This document shows positions 3,389 through 31,913 of a DNA stretch of 32,775 nucleotides, piece by piece (the stretch's first letter is position 1; every line of letters begins with the position of its first letter). The stretch comes from Patescibacteria group bacterium. Its GTDB lineage: Bacteria; Patescibacteriota; Minisyncoccia; Minisyncoccales; PWPS01. The stretch spans positions 1 to 32,775 of the forward strand of contig JAYEKQ010000044.1 of assembly GCA_034661095.1 (NCBI GenBank), read 5' to 3'. Made by a program: the position numbers and the translations under genes. The notes under the pieces are model-generated. The model did no database searches, was not told where the DNA came from, and saw only the letters and a program-made list of their open reading frames with translations.

Positions 3389-3459
3389 CTGCTGGGCTAG
3401 GATTCGAACCTAGATTAATGGAGCCAGAACCCATCGTCCTACCATTAGACGACCCAGCA
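3389..3459 (-). tRNA. tRNA-Gln (anticodon CUG)
   Basis: Hand-folded cloverleaf: TGCTGGG TC GTCT AATGGTA GGAC G ATGGG TTCTGGC TCCAT TAAT CTAGG TTCGAAT CCTAG CCCAGCA G. It has the U1:A72 pair and G73 discriminator typical of bacterial tRNA-Gln. CCA is not encoded. Confidence 0.9.
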
Positions 3460-3470
3460 ATGACAAAGTG

Positions 3471-3693
3471 AATTTTCAATTTTCTAATTTTTAAAAATAT
3501 TCTTGTCATTCTGAACGAAGTGAAGAATCTCTTGGTTTCTGCAATAATAATGGGATTCTTCACTACGCTTTGCTCCGTTCAGAATGACAAAGAGGGCAGA
3601 AATTTCCATAGGTGTCACCTTTCCATAGGTGACACCTATGACATTTTGTTTGAGTTATTTGGAAATTGGAAATTTGGTGCTTCATTGAAAATT
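3471..3693 (+). repeat. Composite intergenic repeat, copy 1 (AT leader, ~85-nt long palindrome, CCATAGG hairpin, 7-bp array)
   Basis: Near-identical to 6939-7144 apart from about 7 substitutions and an extra 17-nt internal duplication (tgtcacctttccatagg). The long palindrome gtcattctgaacgaagtgaagaatc ... gattcttcact ... cgttcagaatgac spans 3506-3588. Confidence 0.85.
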
Positions 3694-6443: not shown

Positions 6444-6515
6444 AGCCGATGGTCGGAGTCGAACCGACGGCCTACTCTTTACGAGAGAGTTGCTCTGCCA
6501 CTGAGCTACATCGGC
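6444..6515 (-). tRNA. tRNA-Thr (anticodon CGU)
   Basis: Hand-folded cloverleaf: GCCGATG TA GCTC AGTGGCA GAGC A ACTCT CTCGTAA AGAGT AGGCC GTCGG TTCGACT CCGAC CATCGGC T. Confidence 0.9.
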
Positions 6516-6938: not shown

Positions 6939-7144
6939 AATTTTCAATTTCCTAATTTTTAAAAATATTCTTGTCATTCTGAACGAAGTAAAGAATCTCT
7001 TGGTTTCTGCAATAATAATGGGATTCTTCACTATGCTTCACTCCGTTCAGAATGACAAAGAGGGCAGAAATTTCCATAGGTGACACCTATGACATTTTGT
7101 TTGAGTTATTTGGAAATTGGAAATTTGGTCATTCATTGAAAATT
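6939..7144 (+). repeat. Composite intergenic repeat, copy 2
   Basis: Aligns end to end with 3471-3693 in the same orientation. It lies between the lepA stop and the divIC-like start. Confidence 0.85.
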
Positions 7145-8976: not shown

Positions 8977-10598
8977 AATTTGTTTAGTGATCTAACCACC
9001 TCCTTAAGTTCTAAAGAATTTACTAACTTTAATGCCAAAAAATACATCACTCCTCCAACTAAAACTGAAATAGAAGTCGTAAGTAAAACTGCGAAAAAAG
9101 TGGTTAAGTGAAAAATATTTTCAATAAAAATTCTTGTTATATAAACAAAAACTCCCATTACTAACGAGGCAAAAACAGTTCTAATAATACAATTCTTTAT
9201 TCTTGGATTATAAAAATCAACCATCTTTTTCTTGAAAAAGTGAACAAGAAGAATCAGGTGTAAAATAGATGAAACAAAAATTGATAATGGAAAAGCAACA
9301 ACTTCAATCTCTTTTATTGATTCTAATCTTAAAACAAGTGACAAAAAGTCGTTAAACACTCCCCCACTTTGAATAATCCAGATAAAGAAGAAGGCAAGAA
9401 TAATGTTAGTTCCCATCGCAAACAAAGAAATTGCCACTGGTGTTTTTGTGTCTTGAAAAGAGAAAAAAGCGCGAACAATAATGTGAATAATTGCTCCCGC
9501 AAAGAATGCAAAAGAAAAAATACCAAGACAAGCAGCAGTAAGTTGTGTTTCTCTCCATCCAAAATTTTCTACTCCTAAAACAAGACGAACAATGTGAGCA
9601 CGAAGAAGAAAAACAATAACACTTGCTGGAATTATAAAAAATAAAACTTGGCAAATTACTTTTGAAAAACTTTCTGCAAACTGTTTTTTCCGTTTTTGAG
9701 CGACGGAACGAGAAAAAGCAGGAAAAGCAGCAATAGCAAAAGCAACACCAACAATTCTTATTGGAAAAGATTGAAAATTATTAGCAAGATTGAAAATAGA
9801 AATACTACCAGCAGTTAGCAAAGATGCCAACGCAGTAATAATAATAATGTTTATCTTTGCTGAAGCCTGTCCAATTATTCTTGGAATCATTAGAAAAAAA
9901 ACTTTATGAAGCTCTTTCTGTTTCAAATCAATAAATGGTTTATATGAAAAACCAGCAAAATATGCTGGGGGAATCTGAACCGCTAAGTGCAAAACAGCTC
10001 CAAAAATAACTCCATACGCTACTCCAACAAGTCCAAAGTGAGGAGCAAGAAAAATAATTCCTGATATGATTCCGATATTGTAAAATATCGGAGCAAGTGA
10101 GTATGCTAAAAATCTTTCAAAGTATTGCAAAAAACCAGAAAATAAACTTGATGCCCCTAGAATAATCGGACTAGCAAGCATTAACCTTGTTAGAAAAATT
10201 GTTTCTTTTAGTTCTTCCCCCGAAAAACCAGGAACAATAAATTTTATAATAAAAGGAGTTATAAAAAAAAGAACAGCGCAAATTAAAAAAAGTACTACTA
10301 AAAGAACATTCATTATATTGCTCGCCAATCTTAATCCTTCTTCTTTTGATTTTTCAAAAACACTTGAAAAAACAGGAAGAAAAACAGCAACAATTCCTCC
10401 AGTTATAAGTATTCCGTATATAAAATCAGGAATTCTGAAAGCAGCAAAATAAACATCAAGTTCTCCAACTGGAAAGTGAGTTACTAAAAGACGATCCCTC
10501 AATAATCCAAGAACGGCACTTACTCCTGTTGAAAAAGCAATTAGTACCGCTGAAAAAGTTATCGTCTTTGATCGTAAATTTATAATTTTTTTTATCAT
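8973..10598 (-). CDS. murJ: Lipid II flippase MurJ (MviN family)
   Basis: Polytopic MviN/MurJ-like protein. I start it at MIKKIINLRSKTITFSAVL (ATG 10596-10598), because the tracked N-terminal extension to 10679 runs into the RNase P RNA gene. It overlaps the lepA start by 4 nt. Confidence 0.85.
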   Translation of the reverse strand: MIKKIINLRSKTITFSAVLIAFSTGVSAVLGLLRDRLLVTHFPVGELDVYFAAFRIPDFIYGILITGGIVAVFLPVFSSVFEKSKEEGLRLASNIMNVLLVVLFLICAVLFFITPFIIKFIVPGFSGEELKETIFLTRLMLASPIILGASSLFSGFLQYFERFLAYSLAPIFYNIGIISGIIFLAPHFGLVGVAYGVIFGAVLHLAVQIPPAYFAGFSYKPFIDLKQKELHKVFFLMIPRIIGQASAKINIIIITALASLLTAGSISIFNLANNFQSFPIRIVGVAFAIAAFPAFSRSVAQKRKKQFAESFSKVICQVLFFIIPASVIVFLLRAHIVRLVLGVENFGWRETQLTAACLGIFSFAFFAGAIIHIIVRAFFSFQDTKTPVAISLFAMGTNIILAFFFIWIIQSGGVFNDFLSLVLRLESIKEIEVVAFPLSIFVSSILHLILLVHFFKKKMVDFYNPRIKNCIIRTVFASLVMGVFVYITRIFIENIFHLTTFFAVLLTTSISVLVGGVMYFLALKLVNSLELKEVVRSLNKL

Positions 10599-10608
10599 AT
10601 CCGTACCC

Positions 10609-11010
10609 TTAAGTCCAAGCAGGATCGTAAGCCGAATTCTGTTACCTTGAGAGATCTCTCTCTGCAAGACGGCAATCATTTATCTGGGATTAGTGTTACC
10701 ACTAACCTCTAGCGGATTACCCTACTAATCTTGATTAGTATGTTTACCCTTGCACCCAGGTAGGAATTTAGCCGTTTCAGCTGGATCTTTAATATAACCC
10801 AGATCACCTCACTAAAACTCTTTCAAGTTTCGCAAGGTGCCTTGATTCTTACGAATCTAGGCGTTTCTGTTCGCATCCCTAATCTCACGATCGACGGGAA
10901 TTACCCGCTACCCTTTTAAGGTGACCCCACCTTAATGAGTGTTCGGACTTTCCTCTCTCATGGGGTATAAACACCCCAAGAAAGCAATTGCCTCGCCTGC
11001 TCGGACTTAA
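10609..11010 (-). ncRNA. rnpB: RNase P RNA, bacterial type A
   Basis: Minus strand carries GAGAGGAAAGTCCGAAC (P4 5' strand) and GGTAACAGAATTCGGCTTAC (P4 3' strand). It also has AAAGGGTAGCGGGTAATTCCCG and a P1 pairing of AAGTCCGAGCAGG with CCTGCTTGGACTT. The region is visibly more GC-rich than its flanks. Confidence 0.9.
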
Positions 11011-12131: not shown

Positions 12132-12140
12132 ATTTTTTAA

Positions 12141-12176
12141 TTTCTAAAGATTGTTTAGTTTATATCTTCCCACCTT
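12141..12176 (+). repeat. Extra partial copy of the 3' arm of the 270-nt element
   Basis: tttctaaagattgtttagtttatatcttcccacct is about 31/35 identical to 12411-12446. It abuts and is complementary to the element's 5' arm. Confidence 0.7.
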
Positions 12177-12446
12177 AGGGTGAGAAGACATAAGCTAAAT
12201 AATCTTTAGCGAAATCAATTTTATTCATATTCAAGGTGCGAGGAGTGGAGCGATATGACAATATCGTGAACAACGAGCAACGCAGAATATGGATAAAATT
12301 GATCCGCCCTACGGGAAGCTCAAAAATATGCTGTCTGCTTCGTTTCTTCTCCTCAATGTAGCTAGACGCTACCTTTCGTCGTCGTGCCTCGCATACAGTA
12401 TATTTTTGAGCTTCTAAAAATTGTTTAGCTTATGTCTTCCCACCCT
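12177..12446 (+). repeat. Structured ~270-nt non-coding element, copy A (candidate ncRNA or MITE)
   Basis: Homologous to 28895-29161 in the opposite orientation. Terminal ~26-bp stem pairs 12178-12204 with 12418-12445. P2 pairs 12217-12233 with 12285-12301. P3 pairs 12315-12334 with 12395-12414. Internal hairpin at 12251-12266. Confidence 0.75.
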
Positions 12447-13175
12447 TATCCTTTTAAGAGAATAAAGGATAGCTCCTGAGTTTAATAATCTTCCTGTTCT
12501 ATCGGCAATGCTCCTTATATAGCAACCACTAGAACAATGAACTTTAATTTTAATAATTAAATACTTTTTGTTATCTTCTTCTTTCTGAAAAACATTTCTC
12601 CACTTTTCAATTATCTCTTCTTGACGAAAATCACCCTTAACGCTTCTTATTTTTTCTTCTATCTTTTTTTCTAAAAATTTCTTTTCTACTTTTATCTTAT
12701 CTAAAATTTCCAAAGAGTAAATAGCAGTTTTTTTGTCAGGAAGTTCAACTTCTTCTAATCTTTCTTGTCGAGCCCACCAAAAAAGAGGTTTTCCTTTATA
12801 CCTGTAGCTTGAAAAAAATGGTGGCTTAAAAATAAAATCACCCTCAAAGCTTTTTAAAACTTTTTCAACTTCTTCTTCTTCTTCAAAAAAGTCTTTATCT
12901 TTTTTTTCAGCAATGCCAAGTATGTCAAAAGAGTCAGAAGAGAAGCCAAAAAGAACTTCCGCTTCATACTCTTTGTCAAGTTTTAAAAAGTGTTTAAACT
13001 TTTTTAAACTATCTCCAACTATAATTAAAATAACTCCCTCTGCCATCGGATCTAATCTTCCCGCATAAGCAATTTTTTTATCTTGAAACTCAGGGTGTTC
13101 TTTTTTTAGTTTTTTTATAACATCTAGTGGAGACAATCCTATTGGTTTGTATAATGGAAAAATTTCTTTAGTCAT
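12414..13175 (-). CDS. truB: tRNA pseudouridine(55) synthase TruB
   Basis: YAGRLDPMAEGVILI catalytic-Asp motif and TruB-family layout. The last ~10 codons are encoded by the 3' arm of the 270-nt element. Confidence 0.85.
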   Translation of the reverse strand: MTKEIFPLYKPIGLSPLDVIKKLKKEHPEFQDKKIAYAGRLDPMAEGVILIIVGDSLKKFKHFLKLDKEYEAEVLFGFSSDSFDILGIAEKKDKDFFEEEEEVEKVLKSFEGDFIFKPPFFSSYRYKGKPLFWWARQERLEEVELPDKKTAIYSLEILDKIKVEKKFLEKKIEEKIRSVKGDFRQEEIIEKWRNVFQKEEDNKKYLIIKIKVHCSSGCYIRSIADRTGRLLNSGAILYSLKRIRVGRHKLNNF

Positions 13176-13910: not shown

Positions 13911-13960
13911 TTCCCCGAGGGTCTTCCCCGAGGGTCTTCCCCGAGGTCTCACCTCGGGAA
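13911..13960. repeat. Tandem 13-nt repeat ending in a CCCGAGG hairpin
   Basis: ttccccgagggtc occurs twice, followed by ttccccgaggtctcacctcgggaa. The hairpin cccgagg tctca cctcggg spans 13940-13958. Its loop is the reverse complement of the loop at 23020-23038 and 31807-31825. Confidence 0.8.
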
Positions 13961-13972
13961 ACTGCGATAAAG

Positions 13973-14422
13973 TTAAAATAACTTGTTATCTTCTTGCTTC
14001 TTCTCATCGTCTAGTACTTGATTAACCATACGATCAGCGTCTTTGTTTTTACTTCTAACAACATGCTTAATTTTAAAACTTTTAAAATTAAGGCGAGCGT
14101 TCCAAAGTTTAAGAAATAGTGGTTGTAGTTTCTCATTCTCAACCTTATATTTTCCTTGCATCTGCTTTGCCAAAAGCTCTGAATCAACGCAAAGCGTTAA
14201 TTCTGCTTCTTTGGCGAGTCGCTTTCCAAAGGATGCTTTAAATTTTTCCAATCCAAAAATAGCGGCCATATATTCTGCTTCGTTGTTTGTTAGATTGTCG
14301 CCTAGATACTTTCCATACTCTTTCATCTTCTCTCCTTTTTCATTGCAAATAACTGCTCCTGCTCCTGCTGGACCAGGATTTCCTCTTGCGCCCCCGTCAG
14401 TAAATATAATTATTTTTTTCAT
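13973..14422 (-). CDS. rnhA: Ribonuclease HI
   Basis: FTDGGARGNPGPAGAGAVI, NNEAEYMAAIFGLE, DSELLAKQMQGKYKV and NKDADRMVN carry the DEDD residues. Confidence 0.88.
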   Translation of the reverse strand: MKKIIIFTDGGARGNPGPAGAGAVICNEKGEKMKEYGKYLGDNLTNNEAEYMAAIFGLEKFKASFGKRLAKEAELTLCVDSELLAKQMQGKYKVENEKLQPLFLKLWNARLNFKSFKIKHVVRSKNKDADRMVNQVLDDEKKQEDNKLF

Positions 14423-15531
14423 ATATATAGGGAGTTATTAATCAAACACTTTTTAAATTCTTCTAAATTATCTTCTTTTAATCTAAACCCAGCAGCTGGA
14501 GCGTGTCCTCCAAAGTTTTCTAAAAGATGTTTGCACTTCTTCATCATATCAACAGCATCATCTCCAAAAGGAACTCTAACTGAACCACGAGCATATCCAT
14601 TTTCAACAATATATATAAAAACTGGCTTCTTGTGTTTTCTTATTACTCTTGTTGCTACTGTTCCCGTTAGAAAAGGAGGAAAGTTTCCTTTCATAAAAAT
14701 AATCGGTTCATCTGGTAAAATTTCTTTTTCTATTTCTTCTTCTGCCTTTTTTATAAGAATCTGCCTTTCTTTATAGTAATCTTTTAATTCTTCTGCTATT
14801 TCTTTTGCTTTCTCTTCTTTTTTTTCTATTAAAAAATGATACCCAGTAGTTGTTTTTTCAAGATGCCTTGTGTTGTTTAATAAAAAAACCGCTTTCTCAA
14901 TAAGTTTCTCTTCAGAAAGATTTTTCTTTAAGATTTTTAACCCTAAATTAACTGGATTTTTTAATGATTCAAGTCCCTTTTTAATAATTTTAAGATTATC
15001 TCCTTCTTTTGGCATCATATCTGCAAATGTAGCAAGAGTGGTTAACTCCAAAAATTCTCTTTCTTTTTCAGAAAACTTTTCTTTTAATATCTCCTTAGAT
15101 AACTTATAAACAATTCCTGCGTTCGCCATCTTCTTGAAAGGATAATTGTCATCTTCCTGCATCGGATCAAGTATCAACGATGCTTCTGGAAGTCTATCGT
15201 GGGTTTGGTGATGATCAATAACAATAACTTGAAACCCACTACTGTTTGCTTTTTTCACTCCCCTAAAATTTGAGATTCCACAATCCATCGTGATAAGAAG
15301 CGCTGGTGCTTCTTCCTTGATTGAATTCACTGCAACTTCAGTTAATCCTCTTCCTTCTTTCTCTATGTTATTGTTATAAACAACGCTCTTTCCTCCCAAC
15401 AAAGCGATACTTTTCTCTAACATTATCGCTGAAGTAATCCCATCTAGATCAGAATCAGAAAAAAGAACAATTTTTTCATTATTCTCCACCGCCTCCCTTA
15501 TTCTACAAGAAACTTCCTTTAAGTTTTTCAT
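14419..15531 (-). CDS. DHH/DHHA1 phosphoesterase, RecJ-like (short, 370 aa)
   Basis: DSDLDGITSAIML, LITMDCGISN, VIVIDHHQ and GGHAPAAGF motifs. Its stop overlaps the rnhA start by 4 nt. Confidence 0.8.
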   Translation of the reverse strand: MKNLKEVSCRIREAVENNEKIVLFSDSDLDGITSAIMLEKSIALLGGKSVVYNNNIEKEGRGLTEVAVNSIKEEAPALLITMDCGISNFRGVKKANSSGFQVIVIDHHQTHDRLPEASLILDPMQEDDNYPFKKMANAGIVYKLSKEILKEKFSEKEREFLELTTLATFADMMPKEGDNLKIIKKGLESLKNPVNLGLKILKKNLSEEKLIEKAVFLLNNTRHLEKTTTGYHFLIEKKEEKAKEIAEELKDYYKERQILIKKAEEEIEKEILPDEPIIFMKGNFPPFLTGTVATRVIRKHKKPVFIYIVENGYARGSVRVPFGDDAVDMMKKCKHLLENFGGHAPAAGFRLKEDNLEEFKKCLINNSLYI

Positions 15532-22934: not shown

Positions 22935-22943
22935 AACTCTAAT

Positions 22944-22972
22944 AATATAACATTTTTAATCATCAATGTCAA
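22944..22972 (-). promoter_or_regulatory. Promoter TTGACA-N17-(TGt)TATATT for secD, 9 nt from the ATG
   Basis: Minus strand reads TTGACAttgatgattaaaaaTGtTATATTattagagttATG. Confidence 0.6.
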
Positions 22973-22987
22973 ATAACCATCGTTTCT

Positions 22988-23141
22988 AAAGAAAGCACGC
23001 AAAACAACACAAAACTTTTCCCGAGGTGAGACCTCGGGAACTCTCCTCTGCCATTCTGAAGGAGCGAAGCAACTGAAGAATCCCATTATCTTTGCAAAAA
23101 CCTTGAGATTCTTCGCTCCACTTCGTTCCGCTCAGAATGAC
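22988..23141. repeat. Composite repeat: AAAGAAAGC leader, CCCGAGG hairpin, ~92-nt long palindrome
   Basis: 22988-23046 aligns with 31775-31834. Hairpin cccgaggtgagacctcggg at 23020-23038. The palindrome gccattctgaagg ... ccgctcagaatgac spans 23050-23141, with its loop inverted relative to 3506-3588 and 31844-31913. Confidence 0.8.
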
Positions 23142-23152
23142 AGTGGGGTATT

Positions 23153-26394: not shown

Positions 26395-26431
26395 TAAAAC
26401 CACTGTCGTTGCAAAGACTTTAAATGTCCAA

Positions 26432-26491
26432 GGTGTCACCTAGGGAAACTGCAAGGATGATGGGATTCTTCGGCTATCGTCTCAGAATGAC
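26432..26491. repeat. Truncated modules: half hairpin plus ggaaactgc junction plus the right half of the long palindrome
   Basis: ggtgtcacctagggaaactgcaaggatgatgggattcttcggctatcgtctcagaatgac. The left arm of the palindrome is missing. Confidence 0.65.
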
Positions 26492-26559: not shown

Positions 26560-26652
26560 CATAGGTGTCACCTATGGCATTTTTTTGGATTTTGGTTATT
26601 AACGCTTATTTGGAACTCCCTAGGTCGGACCTTTTCCCTAGGTCGGACCTAG
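26560..26652. repeat. Hairpin cataggtgtcacctatg, then a tandem duplication of ccctaggtcggacc
   Basis: Hairpin at 26560-26576, then ccctaggtcggacc at 26618-26631 and ccctaggtcggacctag at 26636-26652. The murB stop codon (26649-26651) lies inside the last unit. Confidence 0.7.
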
Positions 26653-28838: not shown

Positions 28839-28894
28839 ATTAAAAAGAAAGAGATGGTGAAGTTAATGCTTGCACCACCTCATCTCTGTTTATA

Positions 28895-29161
28895 AGGGTG
28901 CGGAATCCGAACCAAGTAATTTTAGAAACTGATAAATGAGTTGATTTCAAGAAACGACGACGAAAGGTAGCGATAGCTACATTGAGGAGGAGTGACGCAG
29001 AAAGTAGTTTATTTATCAGCTTCCCGTAGGGCGAAACCAATTTTATCCATATTCTGTGTTGTTCGTGGACAAGATATTATTCAATATCTTTTACCACTCA
29101 CGCCTTGAATATGAATAAAATTGATTTCGCTAAAGATTACTTGGTTCGGATCCCGCACCCT
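28895..29161 (-). repeat. Structured ~270-nt non-coding element, copy B (candidate ncRNA or MITE)
   Basis: Reverse complement aligns with 12177-12446. Own terminal stem pairs 29135-29161 with 28895-28922. P3 pairs 29011-29023 with 28925-28937. Internal hairpin at 29071-29090. Confidence 0.75.
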
Positions 29162-29171
29162 TAAATAACTC

Positions 29172-31772: not shown

Positions 31773-31913
31773 CCAAAGAAAGCGCACAAAACAACGCAAA
31801 ACTTTTCCCGAGGTGAGACCTCGGGAAACTCCCCCTCCTCATCGTCATTCTGAGCGGAACGAAGTGAAGCGAAGAATCTTATGGTTTCTGCAAGGATGAT
31901 GGGATTCTTCACT
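31773..31913. repeat. Composite repeat: AAAGAAAGC leader, CCCGAGG hairpin, left arm and loop of the long palindrome (right arm truncated)
   Basis: Aligns with 22988-23046. Hairpin at 31807-31825. gtcattctgagcggaacgaagtgaagcgaagaatcttatggtttctgcaaggatgatgggattcttcact spans 31844-31913. Confidence 0.8.

Follow-up and report, generated by a model that had tools for sequence, protein, structure and literature searches.

The window, by which is meant the whole 32,775-nt stretch of Patescibacteria contig JAYEKQ010000044.1 analysed here, contains two copies, A and B, of a non-coding element of approximately 270 bases (Table 1). Copy A is neighboured by truB and a CAP-domain gene, and copy B by hup and a 5'-3' exonuclease gene. 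The genes beside copies of the element are unrelated housekeeping genes; the 53 proteins scanned from the window and from beside copies are of the same kind, a few of them lacking a Pfam match, and no transposase, reverse transcriptase or nuclease was found among them adjoining any copy. No associated gene was found within approximately 2.5 kb of any copy.

Several other features of the window were recorded. Matches to Rfam were limited to an RNase P RNA and two tRNAs. A second repeat family, a hairpin of approximately 95 nt (TGTCATTCTGA(A/G)CG...GAAGAATC...GATTCTTC...CGTTCAGAATGACA), is present, and a block of approximately 180 nt holding one of its copies (22975-23152) is missing from the corresponding position in the related assembly JAIPIL (L023), so that this family also appears to be mobile. 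Short intergenic palindromes of two related types, CCATAGGTGACACCTATGG and TTTCCCGAGGTGAGACCTCGGGAAA, recur in at least eight places, frequently next to copies of the second repeat family; they may represent a REP-like family or terminators. Next to a 438-aa protein without a Pfam match, whose counterpart in relatives is listed as DUF8128, lies a TraG/TrwB-like coupling ATPase that contains a treble-clef zinc finger; the synteny of this pair among housekeeping genes is kept in all relatives examined.

Table 1. Coordinates of the element copies, their parts and other features of the window.
Feature	Position	Strand	Basis or remark
Copy A, complete element (A-GGG...CCC-T)	12177..12446	+	alignment to copy B; covariance-model score 274.8 bits
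Copy A flanks	TTA 12175-12177; TA 12447-12448		
Copy A P1 5' arm (terminal inverted repeat)	12177..12208	+	inverted repeat I11; P1 pairs
Copy A P2 domain	12209..12307	+	consensus structure and pair counts
Copy A junction strand CGCCCTACGGGAAGC	12305..12319	+	invariant columns
Copy A P3 domain, long variable stem	12315..12414	+	
Copy A P3 apex, conserved, CTCCTCAATGTAGC-loop-GCTACCTTTCGTCGTCGT	12349-12385	+	
Copy A P1 3' arm	12415..12446	+	inverted repeat I11
Solo third arm, copy of the element's last ~35 nt	12140..12174	+	abuts copy A via TTA, end-to-end
Copy B, complete element	28895..29161	-	between hup stop codon and hup terminator hairpin
Copy B P1 5' arm	29133..29163	-	inverted repeat I12
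Copy B P1 3' arm	28893..28923	-	inverted repeat I12
Second repeat family	3471-3620, 6939-7088, 23040-23150, 31837-31913		
Short palindromes	2275-2298, 3624-3647, 7075-7098, 13937-13963, 23017-23043, 26424-26450, 26560-26583, 31804-31830		
RNase P RNA class A	10612-11003	-	135 bits; several helices shortened or missing
tRNA genes	6444-6515, 3389-3459	-	
TraG/TrwB-like ATPase and 438-aa protein	16737-19663		

Copies A and B align over their whole length, with long identical blocks alternating with differing stretches. All of the conserved blocks listed in a preliminary description of the two copies were present, as was the 1-nt indel between them, which falls in the loop of a small hairpin (GTAGC-loop-GCTAC). 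Folding of both copies reproduced the P3 stems and apical hairpins as they had been described. The terminal stem, P1, pairs as claimed and is longer than the 26 bp or so first given, extending to 33 nt in copy A (91% complementarity) and 31 nt in copy B (94%). Both copies adopt the same three-way junction at approximately -115 kcal/mol, with z-scores of -12.3 and -12.8 for A and B respectively against dinucleotide shuffles.

The consensus fold determined with RNAalifold from eight full copies comprises 92 pairs. P1 is formed from both ends of the element over 29-32 bp, beginning with GGG and ending with CCC, and 93.5% of its cells are paired. In P2 the lower stem is conserved and contains an invariant U·G pair; an irregular middle and a variable apical hairpin follow. 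The apex of P3 is conserved as CUCCUCAAUGUAGC-loop-GCUACCUUUCGUCGUCG. The junction is a 7-nt strand within the invariant sequence GCCCUACGGGAAG; the core of the junction strand, GCCCTACGGGAAG, is invariant in 17 of 17 aligned copies and occurs exactly twice in the window against 0.11 occurrences expected by chance. The arms of P1 are the most variable part of the element and are not themselves palindromic; the interior is the conserved part. P2 and P3 are imperfect palindromes joined by the invariant junction strand, and a single strand of either polarity therefore folds into a Y. On the opposite strand the flanks of the P3 apex, CGACGACGAAAGG and AUUGAGGAGGAG, could, as predicted from their sequence, alternate C-G pairs with tandem G·A pairs.

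That the stems differ between copies and yet remain complementary was the central observation of the preliminary description, and it extends to the eight full copies. Paired cells made up 94.7% of the total, compared with 83.7% after shuffling and 35-43% when partners were slid, and 40 of the 92 pairs had changed on both sides, compared with 20 and 2-7 respectively. P1 has 17 doubly changed pairs and not one that varies on a single side. Many of its double changes are transversions, for which no G·U route is possible, and one-sided intermediates are almost absent. This scarcity points to upkeep of the palindromes at the level of DNA. Template switching during replication can make and repair perfect hairpins in one step, and maintain them (PMC8794818), and compensatory changes have been described in mobile DNA, both in REPINs (PMC3116915) and in the bcr1 repeat (PMC3184786).

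The stems also reassort as modules. The P2 apex is of type a or b and P3 of type 2 or 3, and each of the four possible combinations is found: b,3 in copy A, a,3 in the copy of L014, b,2 in that of L013 and a,2 in copy C. The orthologous copies C and D differ in the whole type of the small hairpin (GTAGC/GCTAC vs GTAAT/ATTAC), and both types are also carried by non-orthologous copies. The copies are therefore mosaics, and many of the double changes are single old events spread by recombination. The covariation is inflated, much of it deriving from stem modules reassorting between copies, and this reassortment, together with the missing intermediates, fits DNA-level maintenance of palindromes at least as well as it fits selection on RNA. 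At locus A the arm at the end of truB, its inverted partner and the solo arm have window-specific substitutions in common; the solo arm takes no part in the fold, and the change is a concerted one at the level of DNA.

The preliminary description took the pattern to imply selection on a three-way junction of RNA or DNA. The shared fold stands; selection on an RNA does not follow from it, the element being mobile, folding on both strands, lacking a promoter or terminator and lying in mixed orientation. The statement that it belongs to no recognised class of ncRNA was borne out by Rfam, in which no family reached its gathering score on either copy. Only sub-threshold chance matches were returned, mostly microRNA hairpins, the best permissive matches on both copies reaching 12-35 bits where the thresholds are 39-229. 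In and beside copies A and B, no site resembling a promoter or terminator was found. Under RNA parameters copy A folds at -115.8 kcal/mol on the strand originally described and -109.3 kcal/mol on the opposite strand, and copy B at -115.3 and -114.6 kcal/mol respectively; under DNA parameters the values for copy A are -63.0 and -62.8 kcal/mol. P2 is more stable on the described strand by approximately 10 kcal/mol in 12 of the 12 copies that include it, P3 favours the opposite strand by approximately 7 kcal/mol and P1 favours neither.

The ratio of G·U to A·C cells is 4:12 in P1, 23:5 in P2 and 14:3 in P3. A single column accounts for 12 of the G·U cells in P2, and another for 7 of those in P3; on our reading, the independent events fall about evenly on the two strands. 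Early counts from copies A and B alone had favoured the described strand as the one functional strand, a signal that was cancelled as more copies were added. Nothing in these data demonstrates a functional RNA. The element does not qualify as an independent structured ncRNA gene, since it has neither promoter nor terminator, is present in some genomes and absent from others, folds equally on both strands and carries mismatches of mixed kind.

That the mobile unit carries a functional structured RNA, either as a scaffold or guide for a protein encoded elsewhere or in a regulatory capacity, with its junction under selection as RNA, is nevertheless conceivable, if distinctly unlikely. The invariance of the junction strand and P3 apex, the U·G pair conserved on the described strand and the greater stability of P2 on that strand are all in its favour. 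In outline, with a terminal stem formed from both ends, the element resembles retrons or other RNAs associated with reverse transcriptases. The contrary preferences of P1 and P3, the lack of a promoter, terminator, Rfam match or partner gene nearby, the mixed orientation relative to host transcription and the tolerance of copies within the S10 operon and between a promoter and secD all argue against it.

The likeness to a retron msr-msd would be one of architecture only: a terminal stem of both ends whose sequence varies between copies, followed by a structured hairpin domain and a long hairpin. The element here is multi-copy and mobile, no reverse transcriptase adjoins it and Rfam gives no msr match. 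Sequence echoes of retron Ec86 (TAAGGGTGCG, UUAGCGA) and of the CS-6 box (TAGCGA) of plasmid single-strand origins were dismissed as short, of the wrong geometry and lacking supporting context. A tRNA-like T-arm in the arms (GGTTCG.ATCC) was likewise rejected, no T-arm fold being formed.

The two copies are almost certainly members of a dispersed, mobile, non-coding repeat. Approximately 20 full and partial copies were found in at least six genomes, all of them close relatives, with a copy length of 265-270 bp. A pattern scan of 185,579 species-representative genomes yielded true copies in only two assemblies, JAIPIL01, a metagenome-assembled genome (MAG) of Candidatus Paceibacterota with at least nine fragments of the element, mostly at contig ends, and CAZKZM01, a MAG with five copies. 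Further copies are present in L002, L004 and L050. Contig ends often fall within copies, where assemblies are broken. Pattern scanning of a metagenome collection gave no true copy and ten chance matches (L028-L037), and that of a viral collection gave none; blastn against phages and plasmids left the element unmatched, and a protein search with its longest (spurious) ORF returned nothing. A covariance model built from the eight full copies, a check proposed in the preliminary description, recovered only the copies already known when run against 300 kb of related DNA, and approximately 360 kb of related DNA contained no longer element, autonomous partner or transposase with matching ends. Within the reach of these searches, the family is recently active and its host range is one genus-level group of Candidatus Paceibacterota.

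Relative to the flanking host genes, nine copies are antisense and five sense, as counted from ORF maps. Orthologous copies are approximately 94% identical, compared with 86% for a neighbouring gene. Either selection acting once the element was inserted or conversion by other copies could lie behind this difference, which is a point against the MITE-like reading given below.

Both filled and empty states are known for three sites. The site of copy B reads GAGTTATTTATAAAG when empty (L001, L005, L006) and, when filled, has GAGTTATTTA before and TTATAAAC after the element (AGGGTG...CACCC). Copy B is missing even in relatives whose HU protein is identical to that of the window, the spacer between hup and the exonuclease gene measuring only 64-93 nt in relatives, and in some relatives it is the far flank of hup that has a copy, in opposite orientation. 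Contigs of run SRR26901925 match the window organism. The site of copy A is empty in L040 and L048, where only 12 and 3 nt respectively separate truB from the CAP-domain gene and the core is absent. The third site is empty in L049 (GGATTTAAGAATACGG) and filled in L050, where the element (GGGTATGAG...CTCATACCC) is preceded by GGATTTAA and followed by TTAGAATACGG; the flanks of the two, which come from JGI samples 3300035545 (L049) and 3300035043 (L050), are 100% identical over approximately 400 nt. At a fourth site pair, between rplC and rplD (filled in L014, empty in L055), the flanks are too diverged for the junction to be read.

Two sites that are empty in the window are filled in relatives. 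Near 14440 a relative's copy follows a DHH-family gene, and near 22940 a relative's copy lies 4 nt past the -10 box of the secD promoter; the insertion in JAIPIL corresponds to L023:2330-2365. The promoter itself (22940-22990, minus strand) has the form TTGACA-17 nt-TATATT and is only 9 nt away from the ATG. The spacer between the RNase P RNA and murJ, in which the L050 copy lies, reads TTAAGGGTACGGAT in the window (10570-10600, minus strand) and TTAAGAATACGGAT in relatives, and this difference may be chance or a footprint.

The empty sites of copy B and L050 have nothing arm-like, which rules out both the copying of the outer stem from each target site and insertion into existing host palindromes such as CATAGGTGACACCTATG. 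TA abuts 12 of approximately 19 element ends, and most ends abut TA or T-N-A. Copy B matches TA-AGGG...CCCT-TA exactly, in keeping with a duplication of TA (or TTA). For the L050/L049 pair, as for copy A, a TA duplication model is out by 1 nt, and insertion without duplication also fits both.

Insertion without duplication, following a cut beside a short T/A-rich target, would be expected of a single-strand DNA transposon resembling the IS200/IS605-derived elements or REPINs, in which an HUH/Y1 enzyme recognises the Y fold of one strand. Only the fold would then matter, so the stems could drift freely for as long as they paired, and the conservation of junction and loops alongside variable stems would be better explained in this way than by a MITE. 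The L050/L049 pair fits GGG...CCCTTA inserted after TTTAA without duplication, and copy B an insertion of AGGG...CCCTTA after TTTATA; the wobble in P2 is conserved, and the same compensatory behaviour is seen in REPINs (PMC3116915). Against these points, no RAYT or Y1 gene was seen in any locus inspected or among the 53 scanned proteins from the window and the surroundings of copies, the twin subterminal hairpins of IS200/IS605 ends are absent, the mismatches have no consistent strand bias, copies A and B, separated by 17 kb on what is apparently one replichore, are oppositely oriented, and the L050 copy is polymorphic despite missing half of the basal stem of P3. A transposon of this type is considered unlikely.

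In palindrome-associated elements derived from IS200/IS605, recognition by fold would account for variable stems, and two of the three site pairs described here agree with insertion beside a short T/A-rich motif that leaves no duplication. IS200/IS605 elements, however, have separate left and right end hairpins whose ends do not pair with each other, and show strand and orientation bias, whereas the ends of the present element pair and neither bias is seen. REPINs are, like this element, non-autonomous and dispersed in intergenic DNA; their replicative unit is a long hairpin, compensatory changes are common and solo halves are remnants (PMC3116915). In a REPIN a variable spacer separates two inverted REP palindromes, which are short and conserved, and each family has a single RAYT gene; here the ends vary, the interior is conserved and the arms are not palindromic.

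The polymorphic copy in L050 (4975-5296) has an additional internal 5' arm of a different lineage, similar to that of L024, and is without 12 nt of the 5' strand of P3, amounting to half of the basal stem. The extra arm and the deletion indicate recombination or template jumping between copies. As this copy is polymorphic although its P3 is damaged, an intact P3 is seemingly not needed for movement. Template jumping would also be expected of an RNA-mediated, SINE-like retroelement dependent on a reverse transcriptase encoded elsewhere, with the fold as the recognition signal of that enzyme. The chimeric structure of the L050 copy, junctions irregular by 1 nt and a family that evolves while keeping its structure are compatible with such an element. 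It is very improbable given that no reverse transcriptase lies near the copies (the sole RVT_3 match, at 13973-14422, is RNase HI), that symmetrical inverted-repeat termini and TA-type flanks are typical of DNA elements, and that a strand signal is absent.

The preliminary description held the element to be non-coding, and no ORF is indeed common to the copies; the 3' arm of copy A, however, encodes the last ten codons and the stop codon of truB (RVGRHKLNNF-stop; minus strand, 12446..12414). In L040, which has no core, truB terminates in one solo arm-like sequence (950-985; GKYKLNNF-stop), and in more distant relatives it ends in GEFKIEN-stop or GKFQL-stop. The truB end of L040 has a mean identity of 75% and a maximum of 85% to the arms of the element, as the arms have among themselves, and only approximately 60% identity to the native truB ends of L048, L052 and L053. 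Derivation of the arms from the native 3' end of truB can therefore be excluded, and an arm replaced the end of the gene in an ancestor. Thereafter either the window gained, or L040 lost, the core and the inverted arm. A second gene end has been captured in L014, where a copy (1932-2202) lies antisense between rplC and rplD in the S10 operon, a position that is empty in JAIPIL (L055); its arm gives rplC its stop codon and the start of rplD is found 10 nt (TAAAAAAAT-A) past the element.

In the window an end-to-end arm-TTA-arm junction occupies 12154-12199, and the order at locus A is truB-arm-core-arm'-TTA-arm-CAP. This order is as expected from the crossover of a circle inside an arm, and would thus accord with a miniature integrating circle that is excised by a site-specific recombinase with abutted arms (CCC-TTA-GGG) and re-integrates at TA/TTA sites or by recombination in arm-like sequence such as the 3' end of truB. 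The single-arm state in L040 is also consistent with it. Such a circle is regarded as improbable: no integrase or recombinase was seen, there is just one such locus, the sites entered by copy B and the L050 copy had no arm-like sequence, and a copy landing beside an old solo arm would have left the same arrangement equally well.

Tentatively, copies A and B are read as a MITE-like, non-autonomous DNA element that is mobilised in trans and whose terminal inverted repeat is P1. Under the definition of a MITE in PMC3184786, the element corresponds in size (below approximately 400 bp), in the lack of a transposase gene and of a conserved ORF, in its terminal inverted repeats (arms of 31-33 nt, 91-94% complementary) and in its multi-copy dispersal, with filled and empty sites in close relatives (three pairs). 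The bcr1 repeat of the Bacillus cereus group, for which compensatory base changes have been reported (PMC3184786), and the Correia, ERIC and Nezha elements are likewise small, non-coding and multi-copy, with inverted ends, a very stable predicted fold and sites that are filled in one close relative and empty in another. Unlike MITEs of the bcr1 type, which form a single hairpin or cruciform, the present element forms a three-way junction, its arms are its most variable part, its target duplication is unclean, it has no known parent insertion sequence and its host belongs to the Paceibacterota (CPR). TA-type targets are known for Correia and IS630-derived elements.

Some observations count against a transposase acting on terminal inverted repeats in double-stranded DNA. 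That the arms vary most is the opposite of what a sequence-specific transposase needs, and the conserved junction strand, the U·G pair of P2 and the P3 apex resemble a recognition surface on a folded single strand, which such a transposase leaves unexplained. The lack of a clean target-site duplication, and of an autonomous partner in the approximately 360 kb of related DNA inspected, are further points against the MITE-like reading.

A mechanism for an element that is mobile, dispersed in many copies, mosaic in its modules and without a strand signal may be outlined as follows. An enzyme encoded elsewhere in the genome would recognise the paired or inverted arms and direct insertion to TA/TWA sites in AT-rich intergenic DNA. 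This enzyme would most likely be a DDE-type transposase, with a single-strand-specific HUH enzyme as the main alternative, and the intermediate could be circular or tandem, as is suggested by the abutted-end junction beside copy A. Stem modules would be exchanged among copies by recombination. The arms could be kept matching by hairpin-templated repair or template switching, in which one arm of the palindrome is copied onto the other, and by the restriction of movement to copies whose arms still match. RNA read through a copy would fold, that fold being a by-product.

Alternatively, and with a probability that is judged to be low, the element may be defined by its shape and not by its sequence, the mover recognising a Y-shaped single strand of DNA or RNA with ends paired beside an invariant junction. 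Matching would then be the main demand on the arms, whose sequence would be almost free and could even comprise the terminal codons of host genes.

On the best reading, that of a MITE-like element, the repeat is a new family of an already known type, with three unusual traits: the three-way junction, ends more variable than the interior and the capture of gene ends. A MITE from Parcubacteria or other CPR bacteria was not found in the literature searched, and the Paceibacterota, CPR bacteria with tiny genomes, gain a recently active mobile repeat. The element also offers a caution for RNA discovery, in that near-perfect "covariation" over 92 pairs arose from mobile palindromic DNA in which no preference for either RNA strand was seen. 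In its hosts it is found inside essential operons and has rewritten gene ends, the stop codons of truB and rplC being supplied by its arm, and as its copies break metagenome assemblies it affects the quality of the assembled genomes of this group. A recognisable transposase was seen near no copy, and recognition by shape, if true, would represent a mode of mobilisation undescribed for bacterial repeats, in a CPR lineage with very small genomes.
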